Shown piece by piece: positions 4,006 through 46,080 of a DNA stretch of 64,000 bases. Made by a program: the position numbers and the translations under genes. The notes below the pieces were generated by a model that made no database searches, was not told the DNA's origin, and worked only from the letters and a program-made list of their open reading frames with translations. Every line of letters begins with the position of its first letter. Positions within the stretch are counted from its first letter, which is position 1. Source of the stretch: Frankiaceae bacterium (GTDB lineage: Bacteria; Actinomycetota; Actinomycetes; JAFAQI01); assembly GCA_019239875.1 (NCBI GenBank), contig JAFAZI010000031.1:9233-73232 (forward strand), given 5' to 3'.

Positions 4006-4019
4006 TGGCGGGCCTCTTC

Positions 4020-5138: not shown

Positions 5139-5755
5139 GACGGGCCTACCTTGCTCTCGTCGAGCGTCGTCGTGATCACCTTCGCGACCGCGTGCGCAAA
5201 CGCCTCGGCTCCCTCGGCGCCTTCGTTCAGGGCGCGCGTGAACAGCGCGCCGAGCATGACGTCGAAGAGCTGGTCGGCGTCGACCACCGGATCGCGCCCG
5301 GTCTTGGCGATGTAGTCACGGAACGACGCGCGCATCGGCGTGACGCTTCGCTCCATGCCGCGCTGCCACATCGCGTGGTCGTTCTGGTATTCGACGAGCA
5401 GGCCGGGAATCGCCGCTCGAATCGCCGGGTCAGAGAGGTACTCGAGAATCTGCAGGCAGTACGGCTTGAGGTCGGTGATGACGTCTCCGGTGATCGCTTC
5501 GGGCGCCAACAACCCGCTCGGGAAGACGGCCTCCTCGATCAGCTCCGCCTTGCTCGACCAGCGGCGGTAGACGCTCGGTGCGCTGACTCCCGCCCGGCGC
5601 GCGATCGCCTGGATGGTGGTGGCCTGGTAGCCGTCCTCGACCAGGAGCTCGAGTGTCGCCTTCGCAATCGCGGTGTCGACCCGTGGGTCGCGCGGGCGTC
5701 CGACGCGGGCGGGCTCGTCCGGGGAGATGTCGTCGGTCCGGACCGCCTCGGGCAT
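5135..5755 (-). CDS. TetR/AcrR family transcriptional regulator
   Basis: N-terminal TetR HTH (TTIQAIARRAGVSAPSVYRRWSSKAELIEEAV); 206 aa. Confidence 0.85.
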   Translation of the reverse strand: MPEAVRTDDISPDEPARVGRPRDPRVDTAIAKATLELLVEDGYQATTIQAIARRAGVSAPSVYRRWSSKAELIEEAVFPSGLLAPEAITGDVITDLKPYCLQILEYLSDPAIRAAIPGLLVEYQNDHAMWQRGMERSVTPMRASFRDYIAKTGRDPVVDADQLFDVMLGALFTRALNEGAEGAEAFAHAVAKVITTTLDESKVGPS

Positions 5756-9517: not shown

Positions 9518-12500
9518 GTGACGGTCAGCTCTGCGTCTCCCACCATCCGAATTGTCTCGATAAGCGCCGCCGCGCTGGTTGTCGGCGGCCTGCTTGCCGG
9601 CCCTGTGGCGGCGGCATCGAGCCAGGGAAGGACGCCCTACGCCCGCATCGGCAAGGCGCCACGGGTTCCGTCGAGCGCGCACTACGCCGGGCGGACGGCA
9701 TCAAGCCAGCGGGTTTCCGGGTCGGTCGCGCTCAAGGCGCGGAACCCTGAGGCGCTGCGCCGTGAGGCGACCGCCGTGTCGAACCCGCGCTCGGCCAGCT
9801 TTCATCGGTTCTTGGCGAAGGGCGCCTTCGCGGCCAAGTACGGTCCGACCGCCGCTACCATCGCGGCGGTCGAGGACTCGCTGCGTTCTGCCGACCTGAA
9901 GGTCACATCGGTGTCGGCCAACCACCTTTTCGTGCACTTCAGCGGCACCGTGAAGCAGGCCGAGACTGCATTCCGCACCCACCTTGCGAACTACCGGATG
10001 CGGGACGGGCGGACGGCGATGGCGCCGTCGACGCCGGTCTCAATGCCAGCATCGGTGTCGAGCCAGGTGCTCAGCGTCGTCGGCCTCGACACCGTGCTGC
10101 AACCGACCAGCAGTGTCGAGCGAGGTAGCAAGCAGGGGACGAGCGCGCCCCGGCGGCCGAACATTGCCCACTACGCAGGCGCACCCAAACCGTGCCGGGC
10201 CGCGACGCAGGCCGCCAATCTCTTCGGCGGGCTGACCGACGACCAGATCGCGCACGCGTACGGCGTCGACGGTCTCTACAAGAACCACAACACGGGCTCG
10301 GGTCAGACCGTCGCGATCTACGAGCTCGAGCCGTTCTCCCAGACCGACCTCCACAAGTTCAACAAGTGCTACTACGGCAAGACCGCAGCCGATGAGATGG
10401 CCAACCGGCTCGAGGTCGTCAAGGTCGACGGTGGTGCCGGTACCGGCGCCGGCAGCGGCGAGTCGATCCTCGACATCGACGACGTCTCCGGCCTCGCGCC
10501 GGGCGCGAACATCAAGGTCTACGAAGCGCCGAACTCCACGGTCGGCGCGATGGACGAGACCAACCAGATCGTGCAGGACGACACCGCGCAGCAGGTGACG
10601 ACCAGCTGGGGTTTCTGTGAGCTCGACGAGGTGAACCTCGAGCCCGGCTACATCAACGTGGGCAACCAGCTCTACGAGCAGGCGGCGCTGCAAGGCCAGA
10701 CCTGGTTCGCTTCCTCGGGTGATGCAGGCTCCGACTCGTGCGCCTACCAGTCGGCCACGCCATCGGATCCGCAGCTGTCGACCGGCGATCCCGGGACCCA
10801 GCCCTTCGTCGTCGGCGTGGGCGGTACGACGATCACCAACGCCGCGAACTCGCCGACCGAACAGGTCTGGAACGACGGCAACGCGGGCGGTGGCGCGGGC
10901 GGTGGCGTGTCCGCCGTGTGGAGTGCCCCCAGCTGGCAGGTGAAGTTCAACAACAAGGCCGTGGCGGCCGACGCCGTCGCGGAGGGCGGGCTGGACCCGT
11001 GCCCGCAGTCGCCGACGACCGCGGCGCTGTGCCGGGAGACGCCCGACGTGTCACTGCAGGCTGACGAGTACACGGGTGCGATCACCGTTTACATCGGGCA
11101 GTACGGCGGGTGGAACACCTTCGGCGGCACGTCGAGCTCGGCGCCGCTGTGGGCGGCGATCCTCGCCGACATCAATGCCTCCACCAGCTGCCAGGCCTCC
11201 GGCGGCCTGGGGTTCGTCGCACCGGAGCTCTACGCGGTGGCATCGGTGCCGCATGACCGCAAGGCGTCGTTCAACGACGTGACGGTCGGCAACAACGACG
11301 TGTACGACCTGTTCAACGGCAAGTTCTTCGCCGCCCACCCGGGCTATGACATGGCCTCGGGTCTGGGCACGCCGAAGGTCACCGGCGCGAAGGGAAAGGC
11401 CGGGCTGGCGTCGTACCTTTGCGCACTGTCCTCGCCGAACGCGCCGCAGCGACCGACGATCTCGGGCTTGAGCCCGGACACCGTCCCGACTGTGCCGGTC
11501 GGCTCGTTGACGATCACCGGCGCCGATCTCCTCGATGCCACTGCGGTGTCGATCGGCGGCTACCCGGTGCCGGCCGCTAACTGGTCGGCGACGAACGACA
11601 CGCACATCATCGTGTCCACGGTCCCGACCGCGGCGCAGGCGGGTAACGGCGGCGGCGGTCCGCAGGACGGCACCGGGCGCGCCATCGTCAGCGTCACGAC
11701 GGCCGACGGCCAGACAACGCTGGTCACACCGAACGCCACGTTGATGTACGTCGACGGCACGGCCGCCTCACCGGTGCCGGCCGTGACCGGTGTCAGCGCC
11801 TTCGGTGGTTCGAAGGCGGGTGGCAACATCGTGACCGTCTTCGGGTCGGGCTTCACCGACATCGGACCGAACCAGATCACCGGCATCACCGTCGGCAACG
11901 TCGCGGTCGCCAGCTTCGACGTCGTCAGCCCCACCGAGCTCACGATGACGATCCCCGCGTACGACGGCGGCGCCACGGTCTGCAAGCCGGGGACGAATCC
12001 CGCGACCGACGTCTGCCAGACGCAGGTGGTCGTGTCCAACGCAAACGGCGACAGCGACAAGGCGGTGATCGCTCATCCGTATGAGGGTGAGCCCTTCCTG
12101 GGCGCGAGCGGCGGGACCCCGTTGCCGGATTGCGTCGTCGATCACACCTGCGAGATCGTGCCGGCATCGACCGAGTACGACTATTTCGCCGACCCGACGA
12201 TCACCTCGGTCACGACGACCTCCGACGGCGCGTCGCCGGTCTGGGTCAGCGAGCAGGGTGACACGCTCGCGACCGTCGACGGCAAGGGCTTCGACTCGCT
12301 CGGACTGGAGTACGCCGTCATCGGCGATCCGAACAACGCCAACAACCTGGACTACGACATCGTCGACATCACGCCGACAGAGATCCAGCTGATCATCAAC
12401 GGTCACGCACCCACGCGGCAGCCGGTGGTCAAGGCGTTGACCGTGCAGACTCTCGCTGGCCTGTCGAACCCCTCGCCGATCTCCTACGCCGGTATCCCGA

Positions 12501-20311: not shown

Positions 20312-21031
20312 ATGTCAGCCGCCGATGCCTCACCGACGGTGGCAGGCGTCGTCGTCATCATCCCGGCCCTCAACGAGGAAGTTCGCATCTCGGCGACGGT
20401 CGGATCGGCACAGCGCCTGGCGAATGTCTGCCATGTCATCGTCGCCGACGACGGCTCCACCGACAGCACAGCGGAGCTGGCGTCTGCGGCTGGCGCTCAG
20501 GTCGTCCGTCACGACCGGCGGCGTGGCAAGGCAGCGGCAATGACGACCGGCGCTGCTGCCGCAAGGGAGGCGGGGTACGGCGAGTACCCCCTGCTGTTCC
20601 TCGACGCTGATCTGGAGGCGTCTGCGGCGAACGCCGGCCCGCTCATCGCACCGGTCATCAAGGGGGCGGCGGACATGACGATCGCTGTCCTTCCGCCGGC
20701 GGTCGGCGGTGGCGGCAGGGGGTTCGTCATGCGATTAGCCGCGTCAGGTATCGAGCAGGCGACCGGCTGGCGTCCGACCGCGCCGTTGTCCGGGCAGCGG
20801 TGCATCACGCGAGGACTGTTCGACTCGGTCCTGCCGCTGGCGCCGGGCTTCGGTGTCGAGACCGGTCTGACCATCGACGCCCTGCGGCACGGTGCCAAGG
20901 TCAAGGAATGCCCCGCCGACCTCGGGCATCGCGTCACGGGCACCAGCTTCCGGGACCAACGACATCGGGCGCGCCAGTACCGCGACGTGTGGCGGGCGCT
21001 GGCGGCCCGGCGGGTCATCCGGTTCCGCTGA
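20312..21031 (+). CDS. family 2 glycosyltransferase (polyprenol-phosphate sugar transferase-like)
   Basis: GT-A fold: VVIIPALNEE...VIVADDGSTD...LFLDADL (DxD). The track ORF 19775.. has a junk N-terminal 179 aa. Start placed at ATG 20312 after an AGGGTGA RBS. Confidence 0.75.
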   Translation: MSAADASPTVAGVVVIIPALNEEVRISATVGSAQRLANVCHVIVADDGSTDSTAELASAAGAQVVRHDRRRGKAAAMTTGAAAAREAGYGEYPLLFLDADLEASAANAGPLIAPVIKGAADMTIAVLPPAVGGGGRGFVMRLAASGIEQATGWRPTAPLSGQRCITRGLFDSVLPLAPGFGVETGLTIDALRHGAKVKECPADLGHRVTGTSFRDQRHRARQYRDVWRALAARRVIRFR

Positions 21032-21044
21032 TTACTCTGGCCGT

Positions 21045-22058
21045 GTGCCGATAGCGACGCTGGACCAGCTGAGTCGGCCGGTCCGCGACCTGCGCCTGTC
21101 GGTCACCGACCGCTGCAACTTTCGCTGCCCGTATTGCATGCCCCGGTCGAAGTTCGGCGCCGACCATGCCTTCTCCCCGCGGGCGGAGCTCCTGACCTAC
21201 GAGGAGCTTGCCCGGCTGGTGGGCATCTTCGCGGGGCTCGGCGTGACCAAGGTCCGGCTCACCGGCGGCGAGCCACTGCTTCGCCGTGACCTCGAGACGT
21301 TGATCGCCATGATCGCGGCCACGCCGGGGATCGACGACGTTGCACTGACCACGAACGGGTCGCTGCTCGCCGATCGAGCCGCGACCCTGCGCGCGGCCGG
21401 CTTGCGCCGGATCACCGTCAGTCTCGACAGCGTCGACCCGCAGATGTTTGCCGCCATGACCGACTCCCCGATCGCGCTCGACACCGTGCTGGGTGGAATC
21501 GCAGCAGCGCAGGCAGCCGGCCTGACACCGGTGAAGGTGAACGCCGTCGTGCAGCGCGGCGTGAACGAGGCCGGTCTGCTCGACCTCGCGGAGTTCGCCC
21601 GGCAACAGGGCCTCGTGCTTCGCTTCATCGAGTACATGGACGTCGGCACGACGAACGAGTGGCAGAGCGGTGCCGTCGTACCGGCGGCGGAGATCATCGA
21701 ACGGATCGCCGCCGTGCACCCGCTCGAGCCGATCGCGGCGACGATTCGCGGCGAGGTCGCGAGACGCTGGCGGTACACCGATGGCGGTGGGGAGATCGGG
21801 GTGATCGCTTCCGTCACCCAGCCGTTCTGCACCGACTGCACCCGCGCCCGGGTGACGGCGACCGGCGAGTTGTTCACGTGTTTGTTCGCCGCGCGCGGTC
21901 GTGATCTCCGCGGGTTGCTTCGGGCAGGTGCATCCGACGCCGAGCTGGTGGATTTGATCGTAGGCGTGTGGCATGCGCGGACGGATCGGTACTCGGAGCA
22001 ACGCAGTGCGGATCACCAGAGCGGTCGCCGCGCCGAGATGAGCTACCTCGGAGGCTGA
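21045..22058 (+). CDS. moaA: GTP 3',8-cyclase (molybdenum cofactor biosynthesis protein A)
   Basis: Radical-SAM CNFRCPYC motif and C-terminal MoaA Cys cluster (CTDCTRARVTATGELFTC). Start placed at GTG 21045, just after the GT2 stop; an earlier in-frame start would overlap GT2. Confidence 0.8.
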   Translation: MPIATLDQLSRPVRDLRLSVTDRCNFRCPYCMPRSKFGADHAFSPRAELLTYEELARLVGIFAGLGVTKVRLTGGEPLLRRDLETLIAMIAATPGIDDVALTTNGSLLADRAATLRAAGLRRITVSLDSVDPQMFAAMTDSPIALDTVLGGIAAAQAAGLTPVKVNAVVQRGVNEAGLLDLAEFARQQGLVLRFIEYMDVGTTNEWQSGAVVPAAEIIERIAAVHPLEPIAATIRGEVARRWRYTDGGGEIGVIASVTQPFCTDCTRARVTATGELFTCLFAARGRDLRGLLRAGASDAELVDLIVGVWHARTDRYSEQRSADHQSGRRAEMSYLGG

Positions 22059-22082
22059 CCGGTCGCACCGCCGTTAGCCTTC

Positions 22083-22754
22083 TTGCCCATGGGGCTGCGG
22101 ATCGTCATCGCCGAGGACTCGTTGCTGGTCCGCGAGGGTGTGCGGGGCGTGCTCGACAGCCAGGACGACTTCGAGGTTGTCGGGCTGTGCGAGGACTTCG
22201 ACGGGTTGCTGGCCGCAGCCGACGAGCACCAACCTGATGTCGTGGTCACCGACGTCCGGATGCCACCGACCCAGAGCGACGAGGGGATCCGTGCGGCGCT
22301 GCAGCTGCGCGAGACACATCCGCGCGTGGGGGTCGTCGTGCTGTCGCAGTACGCCGAGCCGGCGTACGCACTGCCGCTGCTCGAGACCGGCAGCGACGGC
22401 CGCGCGTACCTGCTCAAGGAGCGGGTCAGCGAGCCCGCTCAGCTCGCCGAGGCGGTCCGCGCTGTTGCAACCGGCGGATCGGTGATCGACCCGAAGGTCG
22501 TCGAGGTGCTCGTGTCCGCACGGTCCGCCCAGAGCAGATCCCCGCTCGAACAGCTCACACCTCGGGAGCTGGAGGTCCTCGCCGAGATCGCGCAGGGCAA
22601 GAACAACGCGGCAGTCGCGGCGGCGCTGTTCCTCACCGAGCGCGCTGTCGAGAAGCACATCAACGCGCTGTTCGCGAAGCTGCAGCTGACCGACGAACCC
22701 GACGTCAACCGCAGGGTGAAGGCGGTCCTTCTCTACCTGTCCGAGACTGCGTAG
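22083..22754 (+). CDS. NarL/LuxR family two-component response regulator
   Basis: REC domain (VVTDVRMPP) plus C-terminal LuxR HTH (LTPRELEVLAEIAQGKNNAAVAAALFLTERAVEKHINALFAKL). Confidence 0.85.
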   Translation: MPMGLRIVIAEDSLLVREGVRGVLDSQDDFEVVGLCEDFDGLLAAADEHQPDVVVTDVRMPPTQSDEGIRAALQLRETHPRVGVVVLSQYAEPAYALPLLETGSDGRAYLLKERVSEPAQLAEAVRAVATGGSVIDPKVVEVLVSARSAQSRSPLEQLTPRELEVLAEIAQGKNNAAVAAALFLTERAVEKHINALFAKLQLTDEPDVNRRVKAVLLYLSETA

Positions 22755-22825
22755 TAGCACCCCCTCGGCTGGCATGTGGACACCCTTGGCCGTGACACCC
22801 GGGCACCGCACGATAGGAGGTCACC

Positions 22826-23200
22826 ATGGTGGAGGAGGCGAGCGAGATGGACGTGCTGGTCGTTGACGACCAGCCGACCTTCCGCGCCGTCGCTCGCACC
22901 CTGGTCGGTCTGACTCCAGGTTTGCGGGTCGCCGCCGAAGCTGAGTCCGGGGAGCAGGCGGTCGAGCTCGCCGGCCGGATCCATCCTCCTGTCGTGCTGA
23001 TGGACATCAACCTGCCCGGCATCTCGGGCATCGAGGCGACCCGGCTGCTGCGCGAGCACGACCCGTCGGTGACGGTGATCTTGATGTCCACGTACGCCGC
23101 TGCCGACCTCCCGGCGGACGCGATGGACAGCGGCGCCGTGGGCTACGTGCGCAAAGAAGACCTGACGCCGGCTGCGTTGACTGCCCTGCTACCCGACTGA
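22826..23200 (+). CDS. stand-alone response regulator receiver (REC-only) protein
   Basis: 124 aa: DVLVVDDQPTF...VLMDINLPGISG, with no output domain. A perfect AGGAGG RBS precedes the ATG. Its 3' end overlaps the convergent kinase gene by 12 bp. Confidence 0.75.
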   Translation: MVEEASEMDVLVVDDQPTFRAVARTLVGLTPGLRVAAEAESGEQAVELAGRIHPPVVLMDINLPGISGIEATRLLREHDPSVTVILMSTYAAADLPADAMDSGAVGYVRKEDLTPAALTALLPD

Positions 23201-24760
23201 CGCCGCGAGCGGCTCGCACGGTACGTCGCCGCGGATCGTCGTGCCGGTTCCGGCCGCAGAGATCACGGACAGGGTGCCGCCGATCGCGCCGAGCCGGTCG
23301 GCCATGTTGGTGAATCCGTGTCCGAACTCAGTTGCGGCCGGATCGAACCCGGGGCCGTTGTCGTGCACTTCGAACGCGAGGCCGGTGTCGGTCACGTTGA
23401 TCGTCACGCTGACTTCGGCACCCTCGCCGGCGTACTTGCCGGCGTTCTGTAGCGCCTCGAGACAGCAGAAGTACGCCGCTGCCTCCGCCTCCGCCGGGTA
23501 TCGGCCGGGGAGGTCGGCCGTGACCGAGACCGGAAGAACCGAGCGATTCGCGGCGGTGGCGAGCGCCTCCCGAAGCCCTCGGTCACGCAACAACGGCGGG
23601 TAGATTCCGTGCGCCAGCTCGCGCAGCTCGCCGATCGTGGTCTGGACGTCGGCCCGGAGCTCGTCCAGCAGCTCGGAGACCGTGGGGGAGCCCTCGCCCA
23701 CCACCTGTTTGGCGAGTCCGAGCTTCACGGCCAGGGCGACGAGGTGCTGTTGTGCTCCGTCGTGCAGGTTGCGCTCGATGGCACGCCGGGATTCATCTGA
23801 CGCGGCCACGATGCGGGCGCGGGAGGCCTGGAGCTCGACGTTGCGCTCTTGCAGCTCCTGCAGCGACGCCTGGAGAGCGGAGTCGAGCCGAACGTTGTGG
23901 AGCGCGAGGCCGACCTGGCGCGCGAGATCGGCAAGCACGCTGTCCTCGTCGTCGCCGTACGGCGGCGCCTGGCCGTCACGCCCGACGACGATCAGACCCA
24001 GCAGTTCGCCGAGATGGGCGATCGGTGCAACTCGGAACTGATGCCGCTCACGACCCTCGAGCATCGACGGCAACCAGACCTGCAACCACGTGTTGCCGCT
24101 GACCCGCGCGTGGGCGGCAACGCGTCGCTCCTCATCGCCGAGCTTGAGCGCGGGACGCCCCCGGTCGGGTACCGCAACGGCGATCTCGAGGTGGCCGTCG
24201 ATGCCGGTCCAGATCTCTGCGCCTGCCGGTCCGATCGTCGCGTGCAAGGTCTCGGCGAGTTGGAGCAACAGCTCGTCCATCGGAACGGCGCGAGTCATCC
24301 GGGCGCCGAACGTCTCCAACGCAGTCGACACCGGTCGCGGGTCCTCACCGGACCAGCGGCGGGCCAGGTCGAGCAGCCGCTGCCGCGCGGGCTCGGCGAG
24401 GATCACCGCAACGACGGCTGCCACCATCGACAGTCCAAGCACGTGTCGCTCGTTGCCTTCGGGTGAGGATCCGAGTCCGATCACGATCACGACGTACGCG
24501 CCGAGCACCAGACCGATCAGGCCACCGGTGACAACGCCGTACCGCAGCGCACGGTCGGCGTGGACTCGCAAGGCGGGGATCCGGCCCAGGATCAGCCCGA
24601 GTGGCAGACCAGCAAGCGCAACGAGACAGATCGCGCCGATCGCGCCGGGCCGCCCGACCAGCAGGTGGAAGCCGGTCGCCGTCCCGGCGACGACGACCGT
24701 CGCAAGGACTCCGGTGACGGTCCACAGGAAGCCGGAGGTGCGGGTCGTGGTTGTCGTCAT
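23189..24760 (-). CDS. sensor histidine kinase (multi-TM N-terminus, GAF-like region, HisKA_3 + HATPase_c)
   Basis: HisKA_3 H-box ERNLHDGAQQHLVAL and an HATPase_c region with GxG motifs. Start ATG 24760 overlaps the permease stop (TGATG). Confidence 0.8.
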   Translation of the reverse strand: MTTTTTRTSGFLWTVTGVLATVVVAGTATGFHLLVGRPGAIGAICLVALAGLPLGLILGRIPALRVHADRALRYGVVTGGLIGLVLGAYVVIVIGLGSSPEGNERHVLGLSMVAAVVAVILAEPARQRLLDLARRWSGEDPRPVSTALETFGARMTRAVPMDELLLQLAETLHATIGPAGAEIWTGIDGHLEIAVAVPDRGRPALKLGDEERRVAAHARVSGNTWLQVWLPSMLEGRERHQFRVAPIAHLGELLGLIVVGRDGQAPPYGDDEDSVLADLARQVGLALHNVRLDSALQASLQELQERNVELQASRARIVAASDESRRAIERNLHDGAQQHLVALAVKLGLAKQVVGEGSPTVSELLDELRADVQTTIGELRELAHGIYPPLLRDRGLREALATAANRSVLPVSVTADLPGRYPAEAEAAAYFCCLEALQNAGKYAGEGAEVSVTINVTDTGLAFEVHDNGPGFDPAATEFGHGFTNMADRLGAIGGTLSVISAAGTGTTIRGDVPCEPLAASVG

Positions 24761-27135
24761 CACTCTGCCCTCAGGATCTCGCTGACCCGCAGCCGCGCAG
24801 CGCGGCGCGCCGGGACAGTGGCGAGCGCGTTCGCTGCGGCGACCGTCGCCGGCACTGCGCCAAGTACGACGGCCAGGGCCAGCGGCGCGACGTACAGCAC
24901 CGGCGTCGCATGGGCCAGCACCCGCCATCCAGTGCGGCCGATCGCGACACCCAGGGGAATTCCGATCACGAGCCCGACGAGCGCGAGCACCGTGGCCTGC
25001 ACGATCACGATCAACCGGGTCTGCCACCGCGTCATGCCCAGGGCGCGGAGCACCGCCACATCACGGCGCCGACGCCGGACTGCGGTCGCGAGTCCGTGGC
25101 CGACCGCGCCGGTCGCCAGCAATAGGAGGAACCCGCCGAGCAGCATCGGCTCGATCCGCACGCTCCGCAGCTCGATCTGCTGCTGCGGCGTTATGAACTC
25201 CGTCGTCAAACCCACGCCGCCCGGCGCGAGGCCTTTCGGAAGTCGTGAGAAGGCCGCCTGCGGATCGACCCCGGGCGCCAGGTCGAACCGGACCTCATGG
25301 AACTTGTCATGCGCCTGGCTGGGCTGAACGACCGCGAAGCCGGCCGTGGTCAGCCACGCGCCGTCCGTGTAGTCGTTGTGAGGGTTCTCGGGGACGAAAG
25401 TGACGCCGCTGACGGTCAGTTGATGACCGTCCACCGAGACGGTGTCGCCAGCATGCATGCCGAGATCTTTCGCCGTGGTCGGTCCGAGCGAGATCTCGTC
25501 AGGGCCGACCGGCGCTCGACCGGACAGGGCGACGATGTCTACCGACCCGACGATCGGCGTGATCGACGTCGTACTCGTCGGGCGACCGTTGACGGTGACC
25601 ACCGCCACGCGCATGTCGTCGAGCGCCGCGATGTCAGGGTCGTGCTTGACCTCGGACAGTGCCTTGGCGAACGACGGCGGTGGCGCACCCTCACTGACGA
25701 AGCCGAACGCGTCGAAGGTCTGGCCGTAGCGGTTGAGGTCGTCCACGGTGCCCGACAGCCCGGCCCGGAAGGTGAGGGCGCCAACGACCCCGATGACGCC
25801 GGCGGCAGCGCCCGCGAGTGCGGGGCGCACCGGGACTCTGGCCTTTCCCCGACCTGGCTCGAGGGCGAACCGGGTGCCGAGGACCGCGCTGACGTGCAGC
25901 CGTGACCGACTCGCCGTGCTGGCCACCCACGAGCGGTGGTCCGGCTCGTCAGCCGACTCACGGGCGACCGTTCGCGACGACACGTAGGCGCCCAGGATTC
26001 CCAACCCCAGCACGCCGATTCCCCCGAGGCTGAGCACTAGGGGATCCAGGTTGGTACCGGGCGTCGGCTCGTACTTGCCCGCGATGCCGGAGGGAAAGAG
26101 CGAAGACATGGCGATGGCGCTCCCGACCGCCCCGATCGTGCCCGCGACCGATGCGATGACCGGGCCGCTCGCGGCCGCGAGCCGGATCTGGGTTCGATCC
26201 ATGCCGACGGCGCTGAGGGCTCGCAGCTCATCCGTCGCTCCGCTTCCGAACCTCGCGAACGCCTGACCCAGCAGGATCAACGAGGCAACGAGCGCGATCA
26301 GCGCGAAGAGCAGCCAGCTGATCGTGGTGAACGTTGCGGTGCGTTGCAGGATCCGGTCGACCGTGTGCTGGTCGGCAACCTGCACGTCGGCGTCGCCCGG
26401 GATGCTCGCGAGCTCCTTGGAGAACTCCGGGATGGCCGCAGCGCCACCGTTGAGAATGACTCGGGCGTTCTTGAAGTACGGGAAGACCGGTTTGATGAAC
26501 TTCACAAAGAACGCGTGGGTCGGCATGTAGACGGGCCCGCCGCCGGGCCCGAGGTCGAAGGTGTTGACGCCGATCCCGACGACGTGAAGCTGAACCGTCG
26601 GTCCGGCGTACGTCGTGCCCGGGGGGAACGCACTTCCCGGTCGCAACGAGTCGACCTGTGCCTTGGATGGCAGCTGAACCGAGATGGTGCGCCCGTACTT
26701 GCCGACGAAGCCCGGACTCGCCACGATCTCGTACGGGTTGCTCGGATCGGCGGTCCTACCGCTGATGATCTTGGGCCGATCGATTGCGATGTTCTGGGTG
26801 AGATCCCCACCCGGGAATCCGGCGACGGTGCCGAAGTCGAAGCCGACGCCCTTTGGCGCGACACCTTCAGCGAGCACGAACGTACCGAGCGTCTTCACCG
26901 CCGGCAGCCGGCGCACCGGACCCCATCGAAACCCGGGCTGGTTCGGCAGCACCATGACGTCGGCCGGCGCGATCGCGCTGTTGAGCCGGGTCAGCACGGT
27001 GTCGGTGCGCCGGGCTCCGGCTGTCGTGGCGATGATGACGCCGCCGGCCATCGTGATCAGCAGCGCGAGGACCACGAGGGAGCGCCATCGGCGCCGGAGG
27101 TCGAGGCGCGCGAACGCTAGTACGGCGGCCATCAC
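24760..27135 (-). CDS. ABC transporter permease, FtsX/MacB-like with a large extracytoplasmic domain
   Basis: 791 aa, with N- and C-terminal FtsX-type 4-TM bundles separated by a large loop. Architecture resembles BceB/MacB. Confidence 0.8.
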   Translation of the reverse strand: MMAAVLAFARLDLRRRWRSLVVLALLITMAGGVIIATTAGARRTDTVLTRLNSAIAPADVMVLPNQPGFRWGPVRRLPAVKTLGTFVLAEGVAPKGVGFDFGTVAGFPGGDLTQNIAIDRPKIISGRTADPSNPYEIVASPGFVGKYGRTISVQLPSKAQVDSLRPGSAFPPGTTYAGPTVQLHVVGIGVNTFDLGPGGGPVYMPTHAFFVKFIKPVFPYFKNARVILNGGAAAIPEFSKELASIPGDADVQVADQHTVDRILQRTATFTTISWLLFALIALVASLILLGQAFARFGSGATDELRALSAVGMDRTQIRLAAASGPVIASVAGTIGAVGSAIAMSSLFPSGIAGKYEPTPGTNLDPLVLSLGGIGVLGLGILGAYVSSRTVARESADEPDHRSWVASTASRSRLHVSAVLGTRFALEPGRGKARVPVRPALAGAAAGVIGVVGALTFRAGLSGTVDDLNRYGQTFDAFGFVSEGAPPPSFAKALSEVKHDPDIAALDDMRVAVVTVNGRPTSTTSITPIVGSVDIVALSGRAPVGPDEISLGPTTAKDLGMHAGDTVSVDGHQLTVSGVTFVPENPHNDYTDGAWLTTAGFAVVQPSQAHDKFHEVRFDLAPGVDPQAAFSRLPKGLAPGGVGLTTEFITPQQQIELRSVRIEPMLLGGFLLLLATGAVGHGLATAVRRRRRDVAVLRALGMTRWQTRLIVIVQATVLALVGLVIGIPLGVAIGRTGWRVLAHATPVLYVAPLALAVVLGAVPATVAAANALATVPARRAARLRVSEILRAE

Positions 27136-27184
27136 TCGGCTCGCAACACGTCAGCCGGCCGCCTCGTCCACACGAGGATGGCGG

Positions 27185-27934
27185 TCACGGCGTGGCGACC
27201 GCCTCGGACGCCAGGTCATCGCTGACCACCTTGCCGTCGTGCATTCGAACGATGCGTGACGCGCCCGCCGCCACCTCGGCGGAGTGCGTGACCATCAGGA
27301 TCGTCTGCCCGTCGTCGTGCAATCGGCGGAACAGCTCGAGGACCTCGTTGCCGCCGTCACTGTCGAGGGCTCCGGTTGGCTCATCGGCGAGCAGCAGAGT
27401 TGGCGAGTTGACGAGAGCGCGAGCGATCGCCAGGCGTTGGCGTTGGCCGCCAGACAGCACGGCGGGCAGCTGTGCCGTGCGATCACCGAGGCCCAGCAGG
27501 TCTAGCAGATCACGAGCCCGCGACTCCGCCGGCTTGCGCTTCGATCCTCCGATCACTGCAGGGAGGACGAGGTTCTCGAGGCAGCTGACCCCGTCGAGCA
27601 GGTTGAAGAACTGGAAGACGATGCCGACGTTGTGCCGCCGGAACCGGGCTAGCCAGTCCTCGTCGCGCCCGGTGATGATCTGGCCGTCGACGACGATCTC
27701 GCCCTCGTCGGCGACGTCGAGTCCGGCGACGAGGTTCAACAAGGTCGACTTGCCGCAACCGGATGGGCCCATGAGGGCGACGAACTCGCCCGCGGCGATG
27801 TCTAGATCGGCACCTCGAAGCGCCCTGACCGGAGCCAGCTCGGCCGTGAACGTCTTCCGGACGCCTCGTACCGACAGCGCGCTGGCGGCAGGCGCGGCGG
27901 AGCTCGCTCCGGTGGCGTTGGTCGTGGTGGTCAT
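27185..27934 (-). CDS. ABC transporter ATP-binding protein (MacB/LolD/BceA-like)
   Basis: Walker A GPSGCGKSTL, signature LSGGQRQRLAIARAL, Walker B LLLADEPTGALD. Start overlaps the upstream stop (ATGA). Confidence 0.85.
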   Translation of the reverse strand: MTTTTNATGASSAAPAASALSVRGVRKTFTAELAPVRALRGADLDIAAGEFVALMGPSGCGKSTLLNLVAGLDVADEGEIVVDGQIITGRDEDWLARFRRHNVGIVFQFFNLLDGVSCLENLVLPAVIGGSKRKPAESRARDLLDLLGLGDRTAQLPAVLSGGQRQRLAIARALVNSPTLLLADEPTGALDSDGGNEVLELFRRLHDDGQTILMVTHSAEVAAGASRIVRMHDGKVVSDDLASEAVATP

Positions 27935-29289
27935 GCGCGTGCCCCCCCAGGGCTGGTCGGTTCGATGGTGGTTGATTCTGTCGCGTGCGCCGGCCCGAGG
28001 ACGCGCGCCGCGGTGACCGGCATGACGCGTCCTTTGACCTTCTGTGCCGGCAGCGATTCGAACTGCCAGCCGTTGCCGAGCTCGGCCGTCGGTCCGCTGA
28101 CCACCGTGGTGCCGGCCGGTCGGGCGAGGTCCTGGAGACGCTGGGCCAGGTTCACGATGTCGCCGACGACGGTGTACTCCAAGCGCTCCTCGCTGCCCAG
28201 AAGCGCCGCCGCGACCTCACCAGTCGACAGGCCGATCCCCAAGCCGAACGGAGAGAGTCCGGCGGCACCCCATGTGGCGTCGAGCGCCGCCTGCCGCTCG
28301 TGCATCGCCGCAGCCGCGGCAAGCGCCTGCGTCGCATGATCAGCCTGCGGGAACGGCGCCCCGAACACCGCCATCACCGCGTCCCCGACGTACTGCATCA
28401 CCGTGCCGCCGTGAGAGAGGACTGCCGCGTTCATCTCCCGGCGGTGCTCGTTCAACTGACCGGCGAGCGCCGCCGGGTCGGTGCGCTCCGCGATGCCGGA
28501 GTAGCCGCGAACGTCGGACATGAGCACCGTGACGGTCAGGCGCTCGGTCTGGCCCGGCTGGCCGCCCTGCTCCCGGAGCTTGCGAACGAGCCCACCGGGA
28601 AGAAGTCGCGACAATGTCTCGCCCTGTTCTTCCCGATCGACGATTGCCTGCTGCAGCATCCGTAGTCGACGCAGCGCGCCCTCCCGACCGGCTGTGGCAT
28701 CCTGCGCCAGATGCAGGAACAGTGCTTCGATCTCGCCATTGATCGTCTCGAGCGGGCAGGCCCGGGCGGCGGCGATCGCCTTGACCGTGCGTCCCTCGGC
28801 GATCATCCGCAGCAGGTCCTCCTCGGCTGGGGCGAGCTCGTCCGGGCCTCGCACCGGGGTCACGAGGGCAGCGACGATCTCCGGGTCGAGCATCGACCCG
28901 CCGGTCGCGACCTCGCGAATCGCACGGGCCAGCCGGTCGCCATCCGCGACGCGGTCCTTCAGCAGATAGGCGAAGCCGGCGGCGCCGTCGGAGAGCAGTG
29001 ACACCGCATACTCCGGCTCGTCGTACTGGGAAAGCACGACAACTCCCGTTCCTGGCAGCCGTCGCCGGATCTCCTTGGCGGCCTCGATGCCTTCGTTCTG
29101 GAACGACGGGGGCATCCGGATGTCGGTGACGAGAACCTGCGGCGCGAGCGACGACGCGGTGTCGACGAGCTCGTCGTAGTCACCGGCCACGCCGACGACG
29201 TCGACCTCAGGGTCACGATCGAGGAGGGCGCGCACGCCCTCGCGGACGATCAGGTTGTCGTCCGCCAGCACCACGGTGATCGCTTGCAC
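27931..29289 (-). CDS. response regulator (REC + degenerate LuxR-type HTH) fused to a class III nucleotidyl (adenylate/guanylate) cyclase domain
   Basis: The REC domain is about 60% identical over ~100 aa to the regulator at 22083 (IRMPP...VVVLSQY...LLKDRV...VATGGS). A LuxR-like helix follows (LLRMIAEGRTVKAIAAA). The C-terminal cyclase has the metal-binding Asp residues (VLMSDVRGYS, YVGDAVMAVFGAP) and the transition-state NxxxR (DIVNLAQR). Confidence 0.8.
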   Translation of the reverse strand: MQAITVVLADDNLIVREGVRALLDRDPEVDVVGVAGDYDELVDTASSLAPQVLVTDIRMPPSFQNEGIEAAKEIRRRLPGTGVVVLSQYDEPEYAVSLLSDGAAGFAYLLKDRVADGDRLARAIREVATGGSMLDPEIVAALVTPVRGPDELAPAEEDLLRMIAEGRTVKAIAAARACPLETINGEIEALFLHLAQDATAGREGALRRLRMLQQAIVDREEQGETLSRLLPGGLVRKLREQGGQPGQTERLTVTVLMSDVRGYSGIAERTDPAALAGQLNEHRREMNAAVLSHGGTVMQYVGDAVMAVFGAPFPQADHATQALAAAAAMHERQAALDATWGAAGLSPFGLGIGLSTGEVAAALLGSEERLEYTVVGDIVNLAQRLQDLARPAGTTVVSGPTAELGNGWQFESLPAQKVKGRVMPVTAARVLGPAHATESTTIEPTSPGGARA

Positions 29290-29450
29290 GGGGCCATTAA
29301 CCCGCGCCGGGGCCGATCAGCGAAAGGGGGGCAATGCCCGTGTTCTCGGATGCTGGCACCCCTACCGGTTCACGGGGCTGCGCCCTCGTACCCACCGAGC
29401 GCGATTCCTACGGTGACGGAAGGCCGCTGGACTCGGCGCGACCTTAGGGA

Positions 29451-30458
29451 GTGGTGGGGATGAAGGTAACTGGCAGCGCGACGTCGATCTCATGGATTCC
29501 CTCGGAGGCCGTCACTGGCCCGACGAAGGCAACGTTCGGGCTCGGAATCAGCCACTACGACAGCCCGCCGCCTGACGTCATCACGGATCTTGAAGGCCTG
29601 TGTGCCGCGGACGGCTTCCGCTTCGCGAACCGCCTCACGGTGACCGCCGAGTTCGACGGTGACCGCCTCGTTTCCCATGACGTCGAAGGCGGGATCGTCA
29701 TGGGGGCCACGACGGTGAACGTCGCCAAGCTCGGCGCGACCTTCGAGGCGGTGTCGCTGCCGGACCTGCGGGCGCCGGTGGAGAAGGGGCCCGGATGGGT
29801 CCGCGTCACGCAGACCTGTGGCGGTCGTACGGCGCTGCCGCTGCCTCGCCCGGTCCGTCACCCACCGTTCGTCAAGCTGCAGGCTCCGATCGTGTGGACG
29901 ACGATCGCGCTGACCCTGCACTCCGACGGCCGTACCGAGGTCGCGCTGCCGAGCGCGAGCCGGTTCCCGCGGCACTGGGTCTATGACACCGACGGCAAAC
30001 TCGTGCTCAAGACGGCGCTCGCGGAATATCACGAGTGGATGGCTCATTCGTTCGGCAAGCGGACCCCGTGGGGCAACGACGACTCACAGGTCGTGACGAC
30101 CGCCGCTGAGACCGCGCTGGAACGCGACCTGTCCACCCGGATCATGCGAGCCGACGCCACGCACGACGTGCACAAACTCGACGCCGGCACCGTCCTCGCG
30201 AAACAAGGCGACCCTGGCGACGAGCTCTACCTTCTGCTCGACGGTGTCCTCTCGGTGGACGTCGATGGCGAGTCTGTCGCCGAGCTCGGTCCCGGCGCGG
30301 TTGTCGGCGAGCGAGCCGTGCTCGAGGGAGGTCGTCGTACGTCGACCCTGACGGCCAGCACGAGGGCAAAGGTCGCAGCGGTGGCCGCCGCCGACATCGA
30401 CCTGGATCGCCTTCGGGAGCTGGCAGAAGGACACAACCGGGAGTCCGCCGACTCCTGA
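29451..30458 (+). CDS. cyclic nucleotide-binding domain protein with an N-terminal domain of unknown function
   Basis: C-terminal CAP-family cNMP-binding beta-barrel (LLDGVLSVDVDGESVAELGPGAVVGERAVLEGGRRTSTLTA). The N-terminal ~220 aa carries no domain I recognise, no TM segment and no HTH. It is divergent from the cyclase-fusion gene across a 161-bp spacer. ATG 29460 is an alternative start. Confidence 0.7.
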   Translation: MVGMKVTGSATSISWIPSEAVTGPTKATFGLGISHYDSPPPDVITDLEGLCAADGFRFANRLTVTAEFDGDRLVSHDVEGGIVMGATTVNVAKLGATFEAVSLPDLRAPVEKGPGWVRVTQTCGGRTALPLPRPVRHPPFVKLQAPIVWTTIALTLHSDGRTEVALPSASRFPRHWVYDTDGKLVLKTALAEYHEWMAHSFGKRTPWGNDDSQVVTTAAETALERDLSTRIMRADATHDVHKLDAGTVLAKQGDPGDELYLLLDGVLSVDVDGESVAELGPGAVVGERAVLEGGRRTSTLTASTRAKVAAVAAADIDLDRLRELAEGHNRESADS

Positions 30459-30745
30459 GTGGCGATCGGTCGACACCGATGGGCCATGCGCCCCTCAGGC
30501 GACGCCGAGCCGTGCGAAATGGGCGGTAAGAGTGTCCCCGGCCGCCCTTTCCGCCCGGCTCGGCGATCGTGTCGACACCGATGGGCCATGCGCCGAGGTG
30601 ACGCCGAGCCGTGCGAAATGGGCCGTAAACCCCGGCATTTTGGCCCGTTTCGCGTGGCTCGGCGATCGGTCGACACCGATGGGCCATGCGCACCCCGACC
30701 TGCGCACCGATGGGCCATGCGTGCGCGGCGCTCGGCGATCGGTCG

Positions 30746-30750
<5 letters not shown>
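30459..30750. repeat. intergenic tandem repeat, ~3 copies of a ~100-bp unit
   Basis: The unit core GGCGATCG(G/TG)TCGACACCGATGGGCCATGCGC recurs at 30461, 30562 and 30661, with a fragment at 30706. Each copy is followed by a second conserved block, GACGCCGAGCCGTGCGAAATGGGC(G/C)GTAA (30501, 30600). The period is 99-101 bp with roughly 85% identity. It lies between the convergent 3' ends of the cNMP-binding gene and lon. Confidence 0.8.
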
Positions 30751-33109
<2,359 letters not shown>

Positions 33110-33201: not shown

Positions 33202-35127
33202 CTACTTCCGCGCGATCGGGGCGGTGATCAGCTCGTCAGGAATGCCGAAGGCCTCGACAAGGTCGGAGGCGAACGGCCGTAACGCATGACAGAGGTCGTT
33301 CACCGCAGTGGTGATGGCCTTGCTTCGAGTGGGCGTGAGCCGGTTGTGTTCGAGGAACCAGGCGCGTTCGGCCTCGATCGTCGCCAGCGCGTGAAGGTCC
33401 GCAAGCCGCGACATCAACACCTTGGTATCGCCATCCTCCATTCGCTCGACGGCGGCCGCGAACGCCTCCATGATGCGGGCGTCGGCGTGCGCGCGAGCGG
33501 CGAGCAGCAGGTGGTCCTGCGCGTGATTGAAGACGACGAACGGATCCTCGTCGGCCTCGAATCCCTTCTTGAGGCGCCGCGCGACACCCTCGAGCGTGTG
33601 CTTCTCCCGGAACGCGATCAAGGACAGCTGGTAGTCGCGATCCGTGAGGTTGGTGTCCTCGTCCGTGCCGGGGATCGCGTCGACGATGCGTTGGAACAGC
33701 GCCCGCGCTCCGGTGCGCTCGATCACGACTTCGGCGACGTGCTCGGCGACGAACCGCACCGTGCCGATGCTGTCGAGCTCACCGAACTCGGCCTGGAAGT
33801 TGGTGAGCAGGGTCTTCGCGACCAGCTGGAGCAGGACGGTGTTGTCGCCTTCAAAGGTTGTGAAGACGTCGGTGTCGGCCTTGAGTCCCGCCACCTGGTT
33901 CTCGGCGAGGTAGCCCGCGCCGCCGCAGGCCTCGCGGCAGTCCTGGATGGTCTTCGTCGCATGCCAGGTGGAAACGGCCTTCAGTGCGGCGGCGAAGGTC
34001 TCGAGCTTGCGCCGAGCCGCATCGTCGTCGGTGCATTCGGTTTGAACCTCGTGGAGCTCACCGACCAGTTCGGCCTGGGCGAAGCTGAGGGCGTACGTCT
34101 TCGCCAGAGCGGGAAGCAGCACTCGCTGATGGGCCAGATAGTCGAGGACCGCGATCTCGGTCTCGCTGTCCGGTGCCTTGAACTGCCGGCGGCGGTCGCC
34201 GTAGCGAACCGCGATCAGCAGTGCTTTCTTGGCAGCGCTCACGGCCGCACCGGAAATGCTGATCCGGCCCTGAACCAGCGCGCCCAGCATCGTGAAGAAC
34301 CGCTTGTTCTCGCTCTCGATGGAACTGGAGTAGGTGCCGTCCGCTGCCACCGTGCCGAACCGGTCGAGCAGGTTGTCGCGGGGGATCCGGACGCCGTCGA
34401 ACGAGATCCGACCGTTGTCCACGCCGTTCAGGCCGGCCTTGATGCCGTCGTCCTCGATGCGGACGCCGGGTTGGATCTCGCCGGTCTCATCGCGGATCGG
34501 AACCAGGAACGCGTGGACGCCGTGTGACTCGTCGTTAGTGATCAACTGGGCAAACACCGCCGCCATCCGGCCGTGGCGCGCCGCGTTGCCGATGTAGTCC
34601 TTGCGCGCCTCGTCGTCGGGCGTCGAGATGACGAACTCATCCGTCGCCGGGTCGTAGGTCGCCGTCGTACGCAGCGATTGGACATCGGAGCCATGACCGG
34701 TCTCGGTCATCGCGAAGCAACCGGGGAGGGCGAGCGACAAGATGTCTTCGAGGTAGCGGTCGTGGTGCCGCTTCGTGCCCAGGTTGCGCACGGTGCCTCC
34801 GAACAGCCCCCACTGCACGCCACCCTTCACCAGCAGGGAGAGGTCTCCGAACGCCTGCGTCTCGAAGCCACTGATCGCACCTCCCACCTCGTCGAGGCCG
34901 CCGTACTCCTTCGGGAACAGCAGTTTGGGCCCGTCGCTCTTGGAGATTGCGAGGGCCTGCTCGAAGATGTGGTCGCGCTGCTCGTCGAGGGTGAGGCCCT
35001 CACGCGGGACGAACACCGGATCGCGCAGCGTCTCGCGTGCTTGGTCGCGGACGTCCGCCCACCGGCCGTCGAGCAGTCGGCGGATCCTTGCCACATCGAT
35101 GTCCAGGTCGAGGGCGTCGATCGTCAT
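33202..35127 (-). CDS. acyl-CoA oxidase
   Basis: 641 aa with an acyl-CoA dehydrogenase/oxidase fold (CFAMTETGHGSDV, ACGGAGYL) and an ACOX C-terminal domain. Confidence 0.85.
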   Translation of the reverse strand: MTIDALDLDIDVARIRRLLDGRWADVRDQARETLRDPVFVPREGLTLDEQRDHIFEQALAISKSDGPKLLFPKEYGGLDEVGGAISGFETQAFGDLSLLVKGGVQWGLFGGTVRNLGTKRHHDRYLEDILSLALPGCFAMTETGHGSDVQSLRTTATYDPATDEFVISTPDDEARKDYIGNAARHGRMAAVFAQLITNDESHGVHAFLVPIRDETGEIQPGVRIEDDGIKAGLNGVDNGRISFDGVRIPRDNLLDRFGTVAADGTYSSSIESENKRFFTMLGALVQGRISISGAAVSAAKKALLIAVRYGDRRRQFKAPDSETEIAVLDYLAHQRVLLPALAKTYALSFAQAELVGELHEVQTECTDDDAARRKLETFAAALKAVSTWHATKTIQDCREACGGAGYLAENQVAGLKADTDVFTTFEGDNTVLLQLVAKTLLTNFQAEFGELDSIGTVRFVAEHVAEVVIERTGARALFQRIVDAIPGTDEDTNLTDRDYQLSLIAFREKHTLEGVARRLKKGFEADEDPFVVFNHAQDHLLLAARAHADARIMEAFAAAVERMEDGDTKVLMSRLADLHALATIEAERAWFLEHNRLTPTRSKAITTAVNDLCHALRPFASDLVEAFGIPDELITAPIARK

Positions 35128-45112: not shown

Positions 45113-46080
45113 TGTCCAACCTCGAGACCGCTCCGGACATCGCCGTCCGTGGTGGCACGTCGGAGGTCGCGGCGAACCCGGTGCGGGAGATCTTCGCCGG
45201 CAAGGAGGTGACGCTCGGCGGCGACACCGTCGTACGACGGCTGCTCCCGAACCTCGGCCGACGCATGGTCGGGCCGTGGTGCTTCATCGATCACTACGGC
45301 CCCGATGACATCTCGGCGCGCGCCGGGATGGCGGTGCCGCCGCATCCCCATATCGGGTTGCAGACGGTCAGCTGGCTGCTCGACGGCGAGGTCCATCATC
45401 GGGACAGCATCGGAAGCGATCAGCTGATCCGCCCCGGCGAGCTCGGGCTGATGACGGCGGGGGCAGGCATCGCGCACGCGGAGCACTCACCCGTCGCGCA
45501 TCCGGCGCTGCTCCACGGCGTTCAGCTGTGGGTTGCCCTGCCCGAGGCCAGTCGCGCCACCGCCCCCGCTTGGCAGCATCACTCGCGGCTCCCGCGCCTG
45601 GACATCGCCGGCTTGTCTGCCACGGTCATCTTGGGCGACGTCGAGGGTGAGCGATCACCTGGCAAGACCTTCGCACCGATCGTGGGGCTGGACGTCACGC
45701 TGCCTCCCGGCGGTGGCGGCCGGCTTCCGCTCGAGGCCGAGTTCGAGTACGCCGCACTTGTGATGTCAGGGGGGATGGAGGCTGACGGGGTCGCGCTCGC
45801 ACCGGGGTCGATGCTCTACCTGGGGTGCGGCCGCAACGACCTGCGCCTCGCGAGCGACGCAGGGGCGCGGGTACTCGTACTCGGCGGCCAACCGTTCGAG
45901 GAACGCATCGTCATGTGGTGGAACTTCGTCGCGAGATCCGGTGACGAGATCGCTGCGGCACGGGAGGACTGGATGGCAGGGGATCGCTTCGGCGAGGTCA
46001 GTGATGCTGGCGCCCGCACGCCCGCGCCTGCGCTGCCGTCCGGCACGCTGAAACCGCGCGGGCGCGTCCGCGACCAGTAG
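45112..46080 (+). CDS. pirin family protein
   Basis: Cupin His motif HPHIGLQTVSWLLDGEVHHRDS. Start overlaps the upstream stop. Confidence 0.8.
   Translation: MSNLETAPDIAVRGGTSEVAANPVREIFAGKEVTLGGDTVVRRLLPNLGRRMVGPWCFIDHYGPDDISARAGMAVPPHPHIGLQTVSWLLDGEVHHRDSIGSDQLIRPGELGLMTAGAGIAHAEHSPVAHPALLHGVQLWVALPEASRATAPAWQHHSRLPRLDIAGLSATVILGDVEGERSPGKTFAPIVGLDVTLPPGGGGRLPLEAEFEYAALVMSGGMEADGVALAPGSMLYLGCGRNDLRLASDAGARVLVLGGQPFEERIVMWWNFVARSGDEIAAAREDWMAGDRFGEVSDAGARTPAPALPSGTLKPRGRVRDQ

Follow-up and report, generated by a model that had tools for sequence, protein, structure and literature searches.

In this study, a 64,000-nucleotide stretch of DNA from a Frankiaceae bacterium (GenBank assembly GCA_019239875.1, contig JAFAZI010000031.1, positions 9,233 to 73,232; hereafter the window) was analysed, with attention to a gene at 27931..29289 of the minus strand that joins a response regulator to a nucleotidyl cyclase and is called the fusion below. 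We believe that its product is probably a phosphorylation-controlled class III nucleotidyl cyclase that was derived from a NarL-type response regulator. The plus-strand frame of this region is riddled with stops, and the minus strand carries an open reading frame (ORF) of 452 amino acids (aa) with a GTG start. The ORF call, Pfam, and the homologue search identified a response-regulator cyclase, with the domains in the order receiver (REC), degenerate LuxR-type helix-turn-helix (HTH), helical linker with a segment resembling a cyclase transducer element (CTE), and class III cyclase. An initial annotation made from the sequence letters had proposed a receiver, a degenerate LuxR HTH, and a class III cyclase for this gene, and the ORF, Pfam, profile, and alignment results agree with it. 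The Pfam search that it had suggested placed Response_reg and Guanylate_cyc over their cutoffs, but GerE under its cutoff.

A protein database search with the fusion returned 7412 hits; the residue conservation counts below come from 120 relatives. The top 120 hits were full-length, at least 70% identical to the fusion, and 433-489 aa long, save one of 656 aa, and relatives carried the JGI label 'class 3 adenylate cyclase/DNA-binding NarL/FixJ family response regulator'. The receiver domain (aa 4-128; 28906..29280, minus strand) was recognised by Pfam, residue conservation, and the AlphaFold2 (AF2) model. Pfam Response_reg (PF00072) matched aa 6-106 (E 4.7e-15, 56.2 bits against a cutoff of 30.2), and the region had the beta-alpha REC pattern in the AF2 model, which had a mean per-residue confidence (pLDDT) of 74. 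The acidic pocket D10/D11, the phospho-acceptor D56, S87, and K111 were each present in 120/120 relatives.

The relation to NarL-type regulators extends beyond the receiver. By BLASTP, the fusion was 46% identical to the regulator at 22083..22754 of the plus strand over aa 4-194 (E 4e-51), through the HTH region, and LAPAEEDLLRMIAEGRTVKAIAAARACPLETINGEIEALFLHL of the fusion was paired with LTPRELEVLAEIAQGKNNAAVAAALFLTERAVEKHINALFAKL in this alignment; the paralogy of the two proteins, already suggested in the initial annotation, was thus borne out. The NCBIfam models of the NarL family (MadR, MctR, NarL, UhpA, and RcsB) aligned from aa 1-4 to aa 174-194, into the HTH, with all matches far under the equivalog cutoffs. 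Profile matches to DevR, DesR, VraR, and NarL spanned both the REC and the HTH, and the N-terminal half superposed on full-length VraR and RcsB in Foldseek. No single chain covering both halves of the fusion was found among the solved structures by the PDB profile search or Foldseek.

The catalytic domain (aa 248-433; 27991..28548, minus strand) is of class III and IIIb-like, with D259, Q299, D303, T373, N380, and R384 at the active-site positions. Pfam Guanylate_cyc (PF00211) matched aa 252-421 (E 3.4e-17, 63.1 bits against a cutoff of 21.9), and PDB profile matches were obtained to CyaB (E 1.7e-33) and Cya2 (E 1.3e-31). The nearest solved cyclases are homodimeric enzymes of class IIIb, namely Pseudomonas aeruginosa CyaB (3r5g), Synechocystis Cya2 (2w01; fusion 6fht), and Spirulina CyaC (1wc0), and the Foldseek TM-score of the cyclase domain was approximately 0.8 to Cya2 and CyaB when normalised by target length. 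In the alignment to CyaB, CyaC, and Cya2, the metal-binding residues D259 and D303 were each kept in 120/120 relatives, and so were the transition-state residue R384 and the class IIIb specificity residue T373, while N380 was kept in 119/120; the conservation of both metal-binding Asp residues and the Asn/Arg pair had been correctly read in the initial annotation. A single chain contains all six active-site positions, which is also the case in homodimeric enzymes of bacteria. Judging from these residues, the fusion cyclase is very likely active.

The base-selecting position, which was not mentioned in the initial annotation, differs from that of the known enzymes. It is occupied by Q299 (Gln in 117/120 relatives and His in 3/120); the corresponding residue is Lys in CyaB and CyaC and Glu in the guanylyl cyclase Cya2. 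The T373 position is Thr in the adenylyl cyclases CyaB and CyaC and Gly in Cya2. The canonical adenine-specifying pair, which is Lys with Asp or with Thr in class IIIb, is therefore present in its Thr and replaced by Gln in its Lys. The Lys-to-Gln change bears on the substrate specificity and not on class III family membership. Because Gln299 stands in place of Lys, the product (cyclic AMP, cyclic GMP, or another nucleotide) is not readable from the sequence. Gln at this position in 117/120 relatives shows that it was selected and is not a defect.

We consider it plausible, although less likely than not, that the fusion is active and phospho-regulated and makes a product other than cyclic AMP (cAMP), with cyclic GMP (cGMP), mixed, or pyrimidine specificity owing to the Gln. 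The residue in question is the one that separates CyaB and CyaC from Cya2, and its conservation also speaks for this view. The original work on Mycobacterium tuberculosis Rv0386 is said to describe a Gln/Asn pair with guanylyl cyclase side activity. An alternative substrate-binding mode of Rv0386 is attributed to Castro et al. (2005) where that paper is cited in PMC3466318, and a single E488K swap at the same position turned Cya2 from a guanylyl into an adenylyl cyclase (PMC5995499). Against it, the other specificity position holds the class IIIb Thr of CyaB and CyaC and not the Gly of Cya2. In the sequence features that were examined, the cyclic nucleotide-binding (CNB) domain of the neighbouring protein discussed below shows no preference for cAMP or cGMP, and this also counts against a product other than cAMP.

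Between the receiver and the cyclase lies the degenerate LuxR-type HTH (aa ~150-200; 28690..28842, minus strand), which was delimited from the paralogue alignment, the PDB profile, the AF2 model, and residue counts. Pfam GerE reached 15.5 bits on the fusion against a cutoff of 23.5, and it matched 10/16 fusion family members at E below 10. A profile of the HTH only (aa 136-226, 16 family members), when searched against PDB sequences, matched the NarL DNA-binding domain 1je8 best (E 0.008), followed by VraR, DesR, ComA, RcsB, and TraR. The AF2 model placed helices at 154-164, 169-175, and 180-199, followed by a long one at 203-221. The recognition helix of the paralogue reads E-K-H-I-N, whereas the fusion family has N184 (114/120), D or G at 185, A or E at 186, I or V at 187, and an invariant E188. 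With GerE under its cutoff and the basic residues of the recognition helix gone, the fusion falls outside the NarL/FixJ DNA-binding regulators; the helical fold is kept, the basic DNA-contact residues are lost, and 'degenerate LuxR HTH' is a fair label.

Retention and conservation of the HTH fold, together with a conserved palindrome upstream of the fusion gene, would be expected if the fusion were still a DNA-binding transcription factor and its cyclase domain served as a regulatory or dimerisation appendage or a nucleotide sensor instead of an enzyme. We regard this as improbable. The replaced residues of the recognition helix and the GerE score argue against DNA binding, the keeping of all catalytic residues in at least 119 of the 120 relatives is unexpected for a pseudo-enzyme, and the cluster already holds a true DNA-binding paralogue.

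In the phosphorylation-controlled cyclase that we prefer, the HTH is joined to the catalytic domain by an extension of its last helix and a segment like a CTE. The long helix and the CTE-like segment (aa ~203-245; 28555..28683, minus strand) were defined from invariant columns, the alignment to 6fht, and the PDB profile. The fusion family has the invariant block REEQG..LSRLLPGG here, and LSRLLP is paired with FGRYL of the 6fht CTE (SRLL opposite GRYL), including the conserved Arg, which is the invariant R228 of the fusion. The concept of the CTE and its conserved Arg were described in PMC5995499. Profile matches of the fusion to the CTE-bearing structures 5o5k and GC-A begin at position 215. 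The AF2 model has low confidence in this region, with the pLDDT of the linker at aa 220-234 below 50.

The fusion is not a one-off but a widespread, tightly conserved family. In a scan of one genome per species, at least 596 genomes encoded a relative, and the family already carries an automatic annotation. The hosts of these genomes are Actinomycetota and some Dormibacterota. In the best 80 of the at least 596 genomes, the relatives were 62-77% identical to the fusion, and an identity of at least 62% at rank 80 points to purifying selection. The best 80 hosts include metagenome-assembled genomes (MAGs) of Mycobacteriales, Acidimicrobiia, Microthrixaceae, MAGs of Dormibacterota, and the genera Jiangella, Nonomuraea, Planotetraspora, Microbispora, Herbidospora, Acrocarpospora, and Nocardiopsis. 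Two further observations on cyclase number were made in these loci, which are numbered with L below. In L029 (Microthrixaceae), there are two full receiver-cyclases, at 3873-5159 (minus strand) and 10001-11293 (plus strand), each near a gene for a cyclic nucleotide (cNMP)-binding protein. In L043, L049, L058, L070, and L080 (Acidimicrobiaceae), a second, more distant cyclase-domain match with approximately 34-37% identity lies a few kb downstream.

In the window, the fusion is followed on the same strand by genes for a transporter and a histidine kinase. The TGA of the fusion overlaps the ATG of a MacB/LolD-type ATP-binding cassette (ABC) ATPase gene (27185..27934) by 4 bp (ATGA). This ATPase was matched by Pfam ABC_tran and the NCBIfam MacB and LolD models, and the MacB match had an E of 4e-65, though it remained under the equivalog cutoff. 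After a gap of 49 nucleotides (nt) comes a gene for a permease of 791 aa (24760..27135), in which Pfam found FtsX in two stretches and MacB_PCD. Hydropathy analysis predicted eight transmembrane (TM) helices and two extracytoplasmic domains (aa 39-271 and 455-660), and the permease is thus a duplicated MacB-type protein and not of the BceB type. Together with the ABC_tran match of the ATPase, the two FtsX stretches and MacB_PCD place the pair in the MacB-type (type VII) ABC transporters. The spacer at ~27150-27175 (minus strand) contains a small GC-rich hairpin, CCTCGT GTGG ACGAGG, with no T-run after it. The TGA of the permease in turn overlaps the GTG of the kinase gene by 4 bp (GTGA). The kinase (524 aa; 23189..24763), identified by Pfam and TM prediction, is of the HisKA_3 type. 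Its four to five TM helices, which are joined by short loops, fall within aa 11-126; after them, Pfam gave a weak match to GAF and then HisKA_3 and HATPase_c. Extracytoplasmic loops this short would fit a kinase that senses by way of partner proteins in the membrane or of the membrane as such.

Both gene overlaps had been seen in the initial annotation and were found as described. It had also assigned the permease to the FtsX type, which holds, with a large extracellular loop, where two large domains are predicted here. Its comparison with Bce-type modules was correct in part. Bce-type systems have a 10-TM BceB permease with one large loop, a 2-TM HisKA kinase BceS, and an OmpR-type regulator. 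The BceRS-AB grouping is like the present one in that an ABC ATPase and an FtsX-family permease are encoded with a kinase of short extracytoplasmic loops. However, the permease of this cluster, with 8 TM helices and a pair of extracytoplasmic domains, differs from the 10-TM BceB, the kinase is of the HisKA_3 type with 4-5 TM helices and is found with NarL-type instead of OmpR-type regulators, and the operon position of the permease holds a variable gene or none. Bce systems belong to Firmicutes, whereas this cluster occurs in Actinomycetota and Dormibacterota. The analogy therefore stands for the grouping of ABC, FtsX, and kinase genes, and fails for the types of permease, kinase, and regulator and for the constancy of the permease. 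The short loops of the kinase and the co-encoded ABC genes make transporter-assisted sensing plausible.

The conservation of this neighbourhood was examined by tblastn of the window proteins on the best 80 loci, and the denominators below are the loci with enough flank. The ATPase is directly downstream of the fusion in 55/70 loci (63-85% identity). A kinase is encoded downstream in 56/63, with an identity of approximately 50-66% where the locus is actinobacterial and 31-40% where the ABC genes are missing. The NarL paralogue is found in 54/63 loci, usually convergent just beyond the kinase (52-79% identity, mostly 58-79%). A relative of the stand-alone receiver described below (at least 45% identity) is present in 54/80 loci, beside the NarL gene in nearly all of them. 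The cNMP-binding gene is upstream, divergent, and adjacent in 57/74 loci and lies elsewhere in the locus in 8 more. This gene order is conserved across phyla.

The permease, by contrast, is the variable part of the cluster. Its identity is 27-52%, its copy number ranges from 0 to at least 4 per locus, and only 22/63 loci have it in the position between ATPase and kinase. The initial annotation had suggested phylogenetic profiling of the fusion against FtsX and kinase operons; the kinase does co-occur with the fusion, and the permease in the operon position does not do so regularly. The loci without an intervening permease include L043 (12001-14211), L007, L014, L017, and L027. The kinase of L043 is 736 aa long, and its N-terminal multi-TM region is much larger. 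Where the permease is missing, the ATPase may directly partner the membrane domain of the kinase. At least three tandem paralogous FtsX permeases with a single ATPase were observed in Jiangella, Acrocarpospora, and Herbidospora (L008, 11324-20521; L057, L065, and L052), which suggests that tandem permeases are interchangeable sensor or substrate modules.

The NarL/LuxR regulator at 22083..22754, with Pfam REC and GerE matches, converges on the kinase gene in the window. MoaA lies upstream of it, so that it has no kinase of its own. According to the initial annotation, the cyclase regulator would stand in for a DNA-binding output in this operon. We do not support this view, since a NarL paralogue without a private kinase belongs to the same cluster, as it does in most loci; the output would rather be branched into transcription and a second messenger. 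Directly after this gene is one for a stand-alone receiver protein of 124 aa (22826..23200, plus strand; Pfam REC, E 5e-24), whose 3' end overlaps the 3' end of the convergent kinase gene by 12 nt. Possible roles for this protein are those of a phosphate sink or a third output. The fusion family has an invariant VREGVR motif in alpha1, and the NarL paralogue of the window has the same motif. We tried these alpha1 specificity residues as proof that the fusion and the paralogue share a kinase and dropped them, because the motif is common among NarL-type regulators.

The divergent intergenic region contains a conserved palindrome, GGGTGCCAGCATCC in minus-strand writing, at 29348..29361, approximately 65 nt upstream of the fusion start; the palindrome is also written as GGGTGCCAGCAYCC. 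The best match to the consensus GGGTGCCAGCACCC had no more than 2 mismatches in 17/79 upstream regions, compared with 7/1580 shuffles, and across the loci the palindrome was usually 60-80 nt upstream of the cyclase gene. There is one exact copy in the window, and one site with 2 mismatches at 46002 is within chance expectation. The NarL paralogue is, from the genes present, the sole DNA-binding protein of the cluster and would be a plausible binder of this candidate operator. The flanks of the cluster are ordinary housekeeping genes, namely MoaA (radical SAM, molybdenum cofactor; 20892-22058, plus strand), Lon protease (30746-33109, minus strand), and acyl-CoA oxidase (33202-35127, minus strand).

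On the other side of the intergenic region, a cNMP-binding protein of 332 aa is encoded divergently (29460..30458, plus strand). The initial annotation mentioned neither this gene nor the stand-alone receiver, and it did not count the NarL regulator as a cluster member. The C-terminal CNB domain of the cNMP-binding protein (E 1.3e-15) has an intact phosphate-binding cassette (GERA...RRTS), in which G283, E284, A286, and R293 are invariant and T294 nearly so. Beta-rich structure was predicted for the N-terminal domain (aa 1-~230), which is strongly conserved, with the motifs SWIPSE, HYD.PP, QTxGGR, and FPRHW, and which matched no Pfam family even at E 10. A representative search found this domain in approximately 1143 clusters at 50% identity; among the 150 clusters listed, most were approximately 330 aa long, the size of the CNB fusion, and a Pfam scan of eight relatives found CNB in 3/8; the few longer ones that were scanned had CNB, in some cases together with other domains. 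The conserved adjacency and the intact cassette make this protein the likely receptor of the cyclase product.

A cyclase gene beside a cNMP-binding gene could also be a Pycsar-like anti-phage pair whose place beside a transporter and two-component locus is coincidental. The PADLOC models PycC and PycTIR did match the cyclase and CNB domains (E 2e-20 to 2e-10). However, the matches are confined to these generic domains, and in the cNMP-binding protein no TM segment was predicted and nothing but the CNB domain was matched by Pfam or PADLOC. The cyclase is also under receiver control. Moreover, the pair is syntenic across classes and the fusion is conserved as described above, which is a housekeeping pattern and not that of a patchy defence island. 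We therefore rejected a Pycsar-type defence system, which we consider highly improbable.

The domain make-up, the conserved residues, the gene overlaps, and the conserved gene order were all observed here. For the preferred phosphorylation-controlled cyclase, we propose a chain of events that is inferred from these genes, from the kinase that would feed the fusion and the direction of its regulation to the product and its receptor. The intramembrane-type HisKA_3 kinase would sense a stimulus, probably with the MacB-type ATPase and the variable FtsX permeases. It would then phosphorylate D56 of the fusion and, in parallel, the NarL paralogue and the stand-alone receiver. Phosphorylation may drive dimerisation or a re-registering of the linker helices and thereby bring about a productive head-to-tail cyclase dimer, with the vestigial HTH and its extended last helix coupling the dimerisation of the receiver to the CTE and hence to the cyclase dimer. 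The cyclic nucleotide made would most likely be cAMP by the class IIIb Thr, which is uncertain as Gln replaces the adenine-selecting Lys. The divergent cNMP-binding protein would read the nucleotide and act through its N-terminal domain. We put forward only tentatively the full cluster model, in which the kinase, the highly conserved MacB-type ATPase, and interchangeable permeases feed three receivers, one of them a NarL derivative whose HTH would serve as a mechanical relay to the cyclase, and the cyclase product, perhaps other than plain cAMP in view of the Gln, is read by a cNMP-binding protein with an undescribed effector domain; it is possible, and we hold it with less confidence than the identity of the fusion as a regulated cyclase.

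Several points weigh against this proposal. With Gln in place of Lys, the cyclase could bind its nucleotide differently or less well. The AF2 model lends no structural support to the proposed dimerisation mechanism, as its inter-domain confidence (predicted TM-score, pTM, 0.48) and that of the linker at aa 220-234 are low. VREGVR is so common in the NarL family that the shared motif is no proof of a shared kinase. The 49-nt gap with its small hairpin splits the ATPase from the permease, and scans for promoters and terminators over 22000-30800 found no sites; these scans are uninformative in GC-rich DNA and say nothing on co-transcription. In 27/63 loci, no permease gene separates the ATPase from the kinase, and the Dormibacterota loci keep the fusion, the kinase or kinases, the NarL paralogue, and the upstream gene and have no ABC genes. 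From the frequent absence of the permease and from these Dormibacterota loci, it follows that the core module cannot require transporter-dependent sensing.

Class III cyclases under receiver control are already known. Receiver control was reported for CyaC of Spirulina and Anabaena (Kasahara and Ohmori, 1999), with activation by phosphotransfer as far as the citation in PMC1183210 goes, and the domains of the receiver-regulated cyclase ACR of Dictyostelium were dissected in PMC3009899. Like the fusion, CyaC and ACR have receiver and class III cyclase in one polypeptide. In contrast, both are hybrids with their own kinase domain and two receivers, whereas the fusion would be fed by a separate membrane kinase, comes from the lineage of NarL regulators, has a vestigial HTH between receiver and cyclase, and carries Gln and not Lys at the specificity site. 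NarL, DosR, VraR, and DesR are homologous to the N-terminal 200 aa of the fusion along their full length, and their partner kinases are also of the HisKA_3 type. They differ from the fusion, whose HTH is under the GerE threshold and without basic DNA contacts and which continues for 250 aa more into the cyclase. In the REC-GGDEF regulators PleD and WspR, the output is a nucleotide second messenger made by a dimer-dependent cyclase. They share this logic with the fusion and differ in catalytic family (GGDEF against class III), product, and linker.

The M. tuberculosis proteins Rv0386, Rv1358, and Rv2488c consist of a cyclase, an ATPase, and a LuxR HTH (PMC3466318). They resemble the fusion as actinobacterial proteins that combine a class III cyclase with a LuxR HTH, and Rv0386 also binds its substrate in a non-canonical mode. 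However, their cyclase is N-terminal, there is no receiver, and a large ATPase/TPR region lies between. The census in PMC3466318 gives the combination of cyclase homology domain (CHD) and LuxR only in Mycobacterium and does not list the order REC-HTH-cyclase. A literature search on REC-HTH-cyclase fusions, on clusters of ABC/FtsX genes with NarL-type kinases in Actinobacteria, and on MctR/MctS found nothing relevant. The initial annotation had called the coupling of transporter and kinase to a cyclase regulator undescribed, and no paper to the contrary was found. The fusion family and its cluster thus appear to be undescribed, and the composition of the full cluster is more interesting than the fusion alone.

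In Actinomycetota, cyclic-nucleotide signalling is known mainly from mycobacterial and Streptomyces cyclases, whose inputs are often unclear. The locus described here offers a testable chain from a membrane kinase with an ABC partner to a receiver-cyclase, a cyclic nucleotide, and a dedicated binding protein, and it occurs in culturable hosts such as Jiangella, Nonomuraea, Microbispora, Planotetraspora, and Herbidospora. The fusion is a natural case of a DNA-binding output domain reused as a linker to an enzymatic output, and the conserved Gln at its specificity position may hint at an unusual nucleotide preference. The cluster context is also a first clue to what the cNMP-binding protein does with its N-terminal domain. 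If the proposal is true, these genes would represent an undescribed link between the sensing of the envelope or of transport and cyclic-nucleotide signals.

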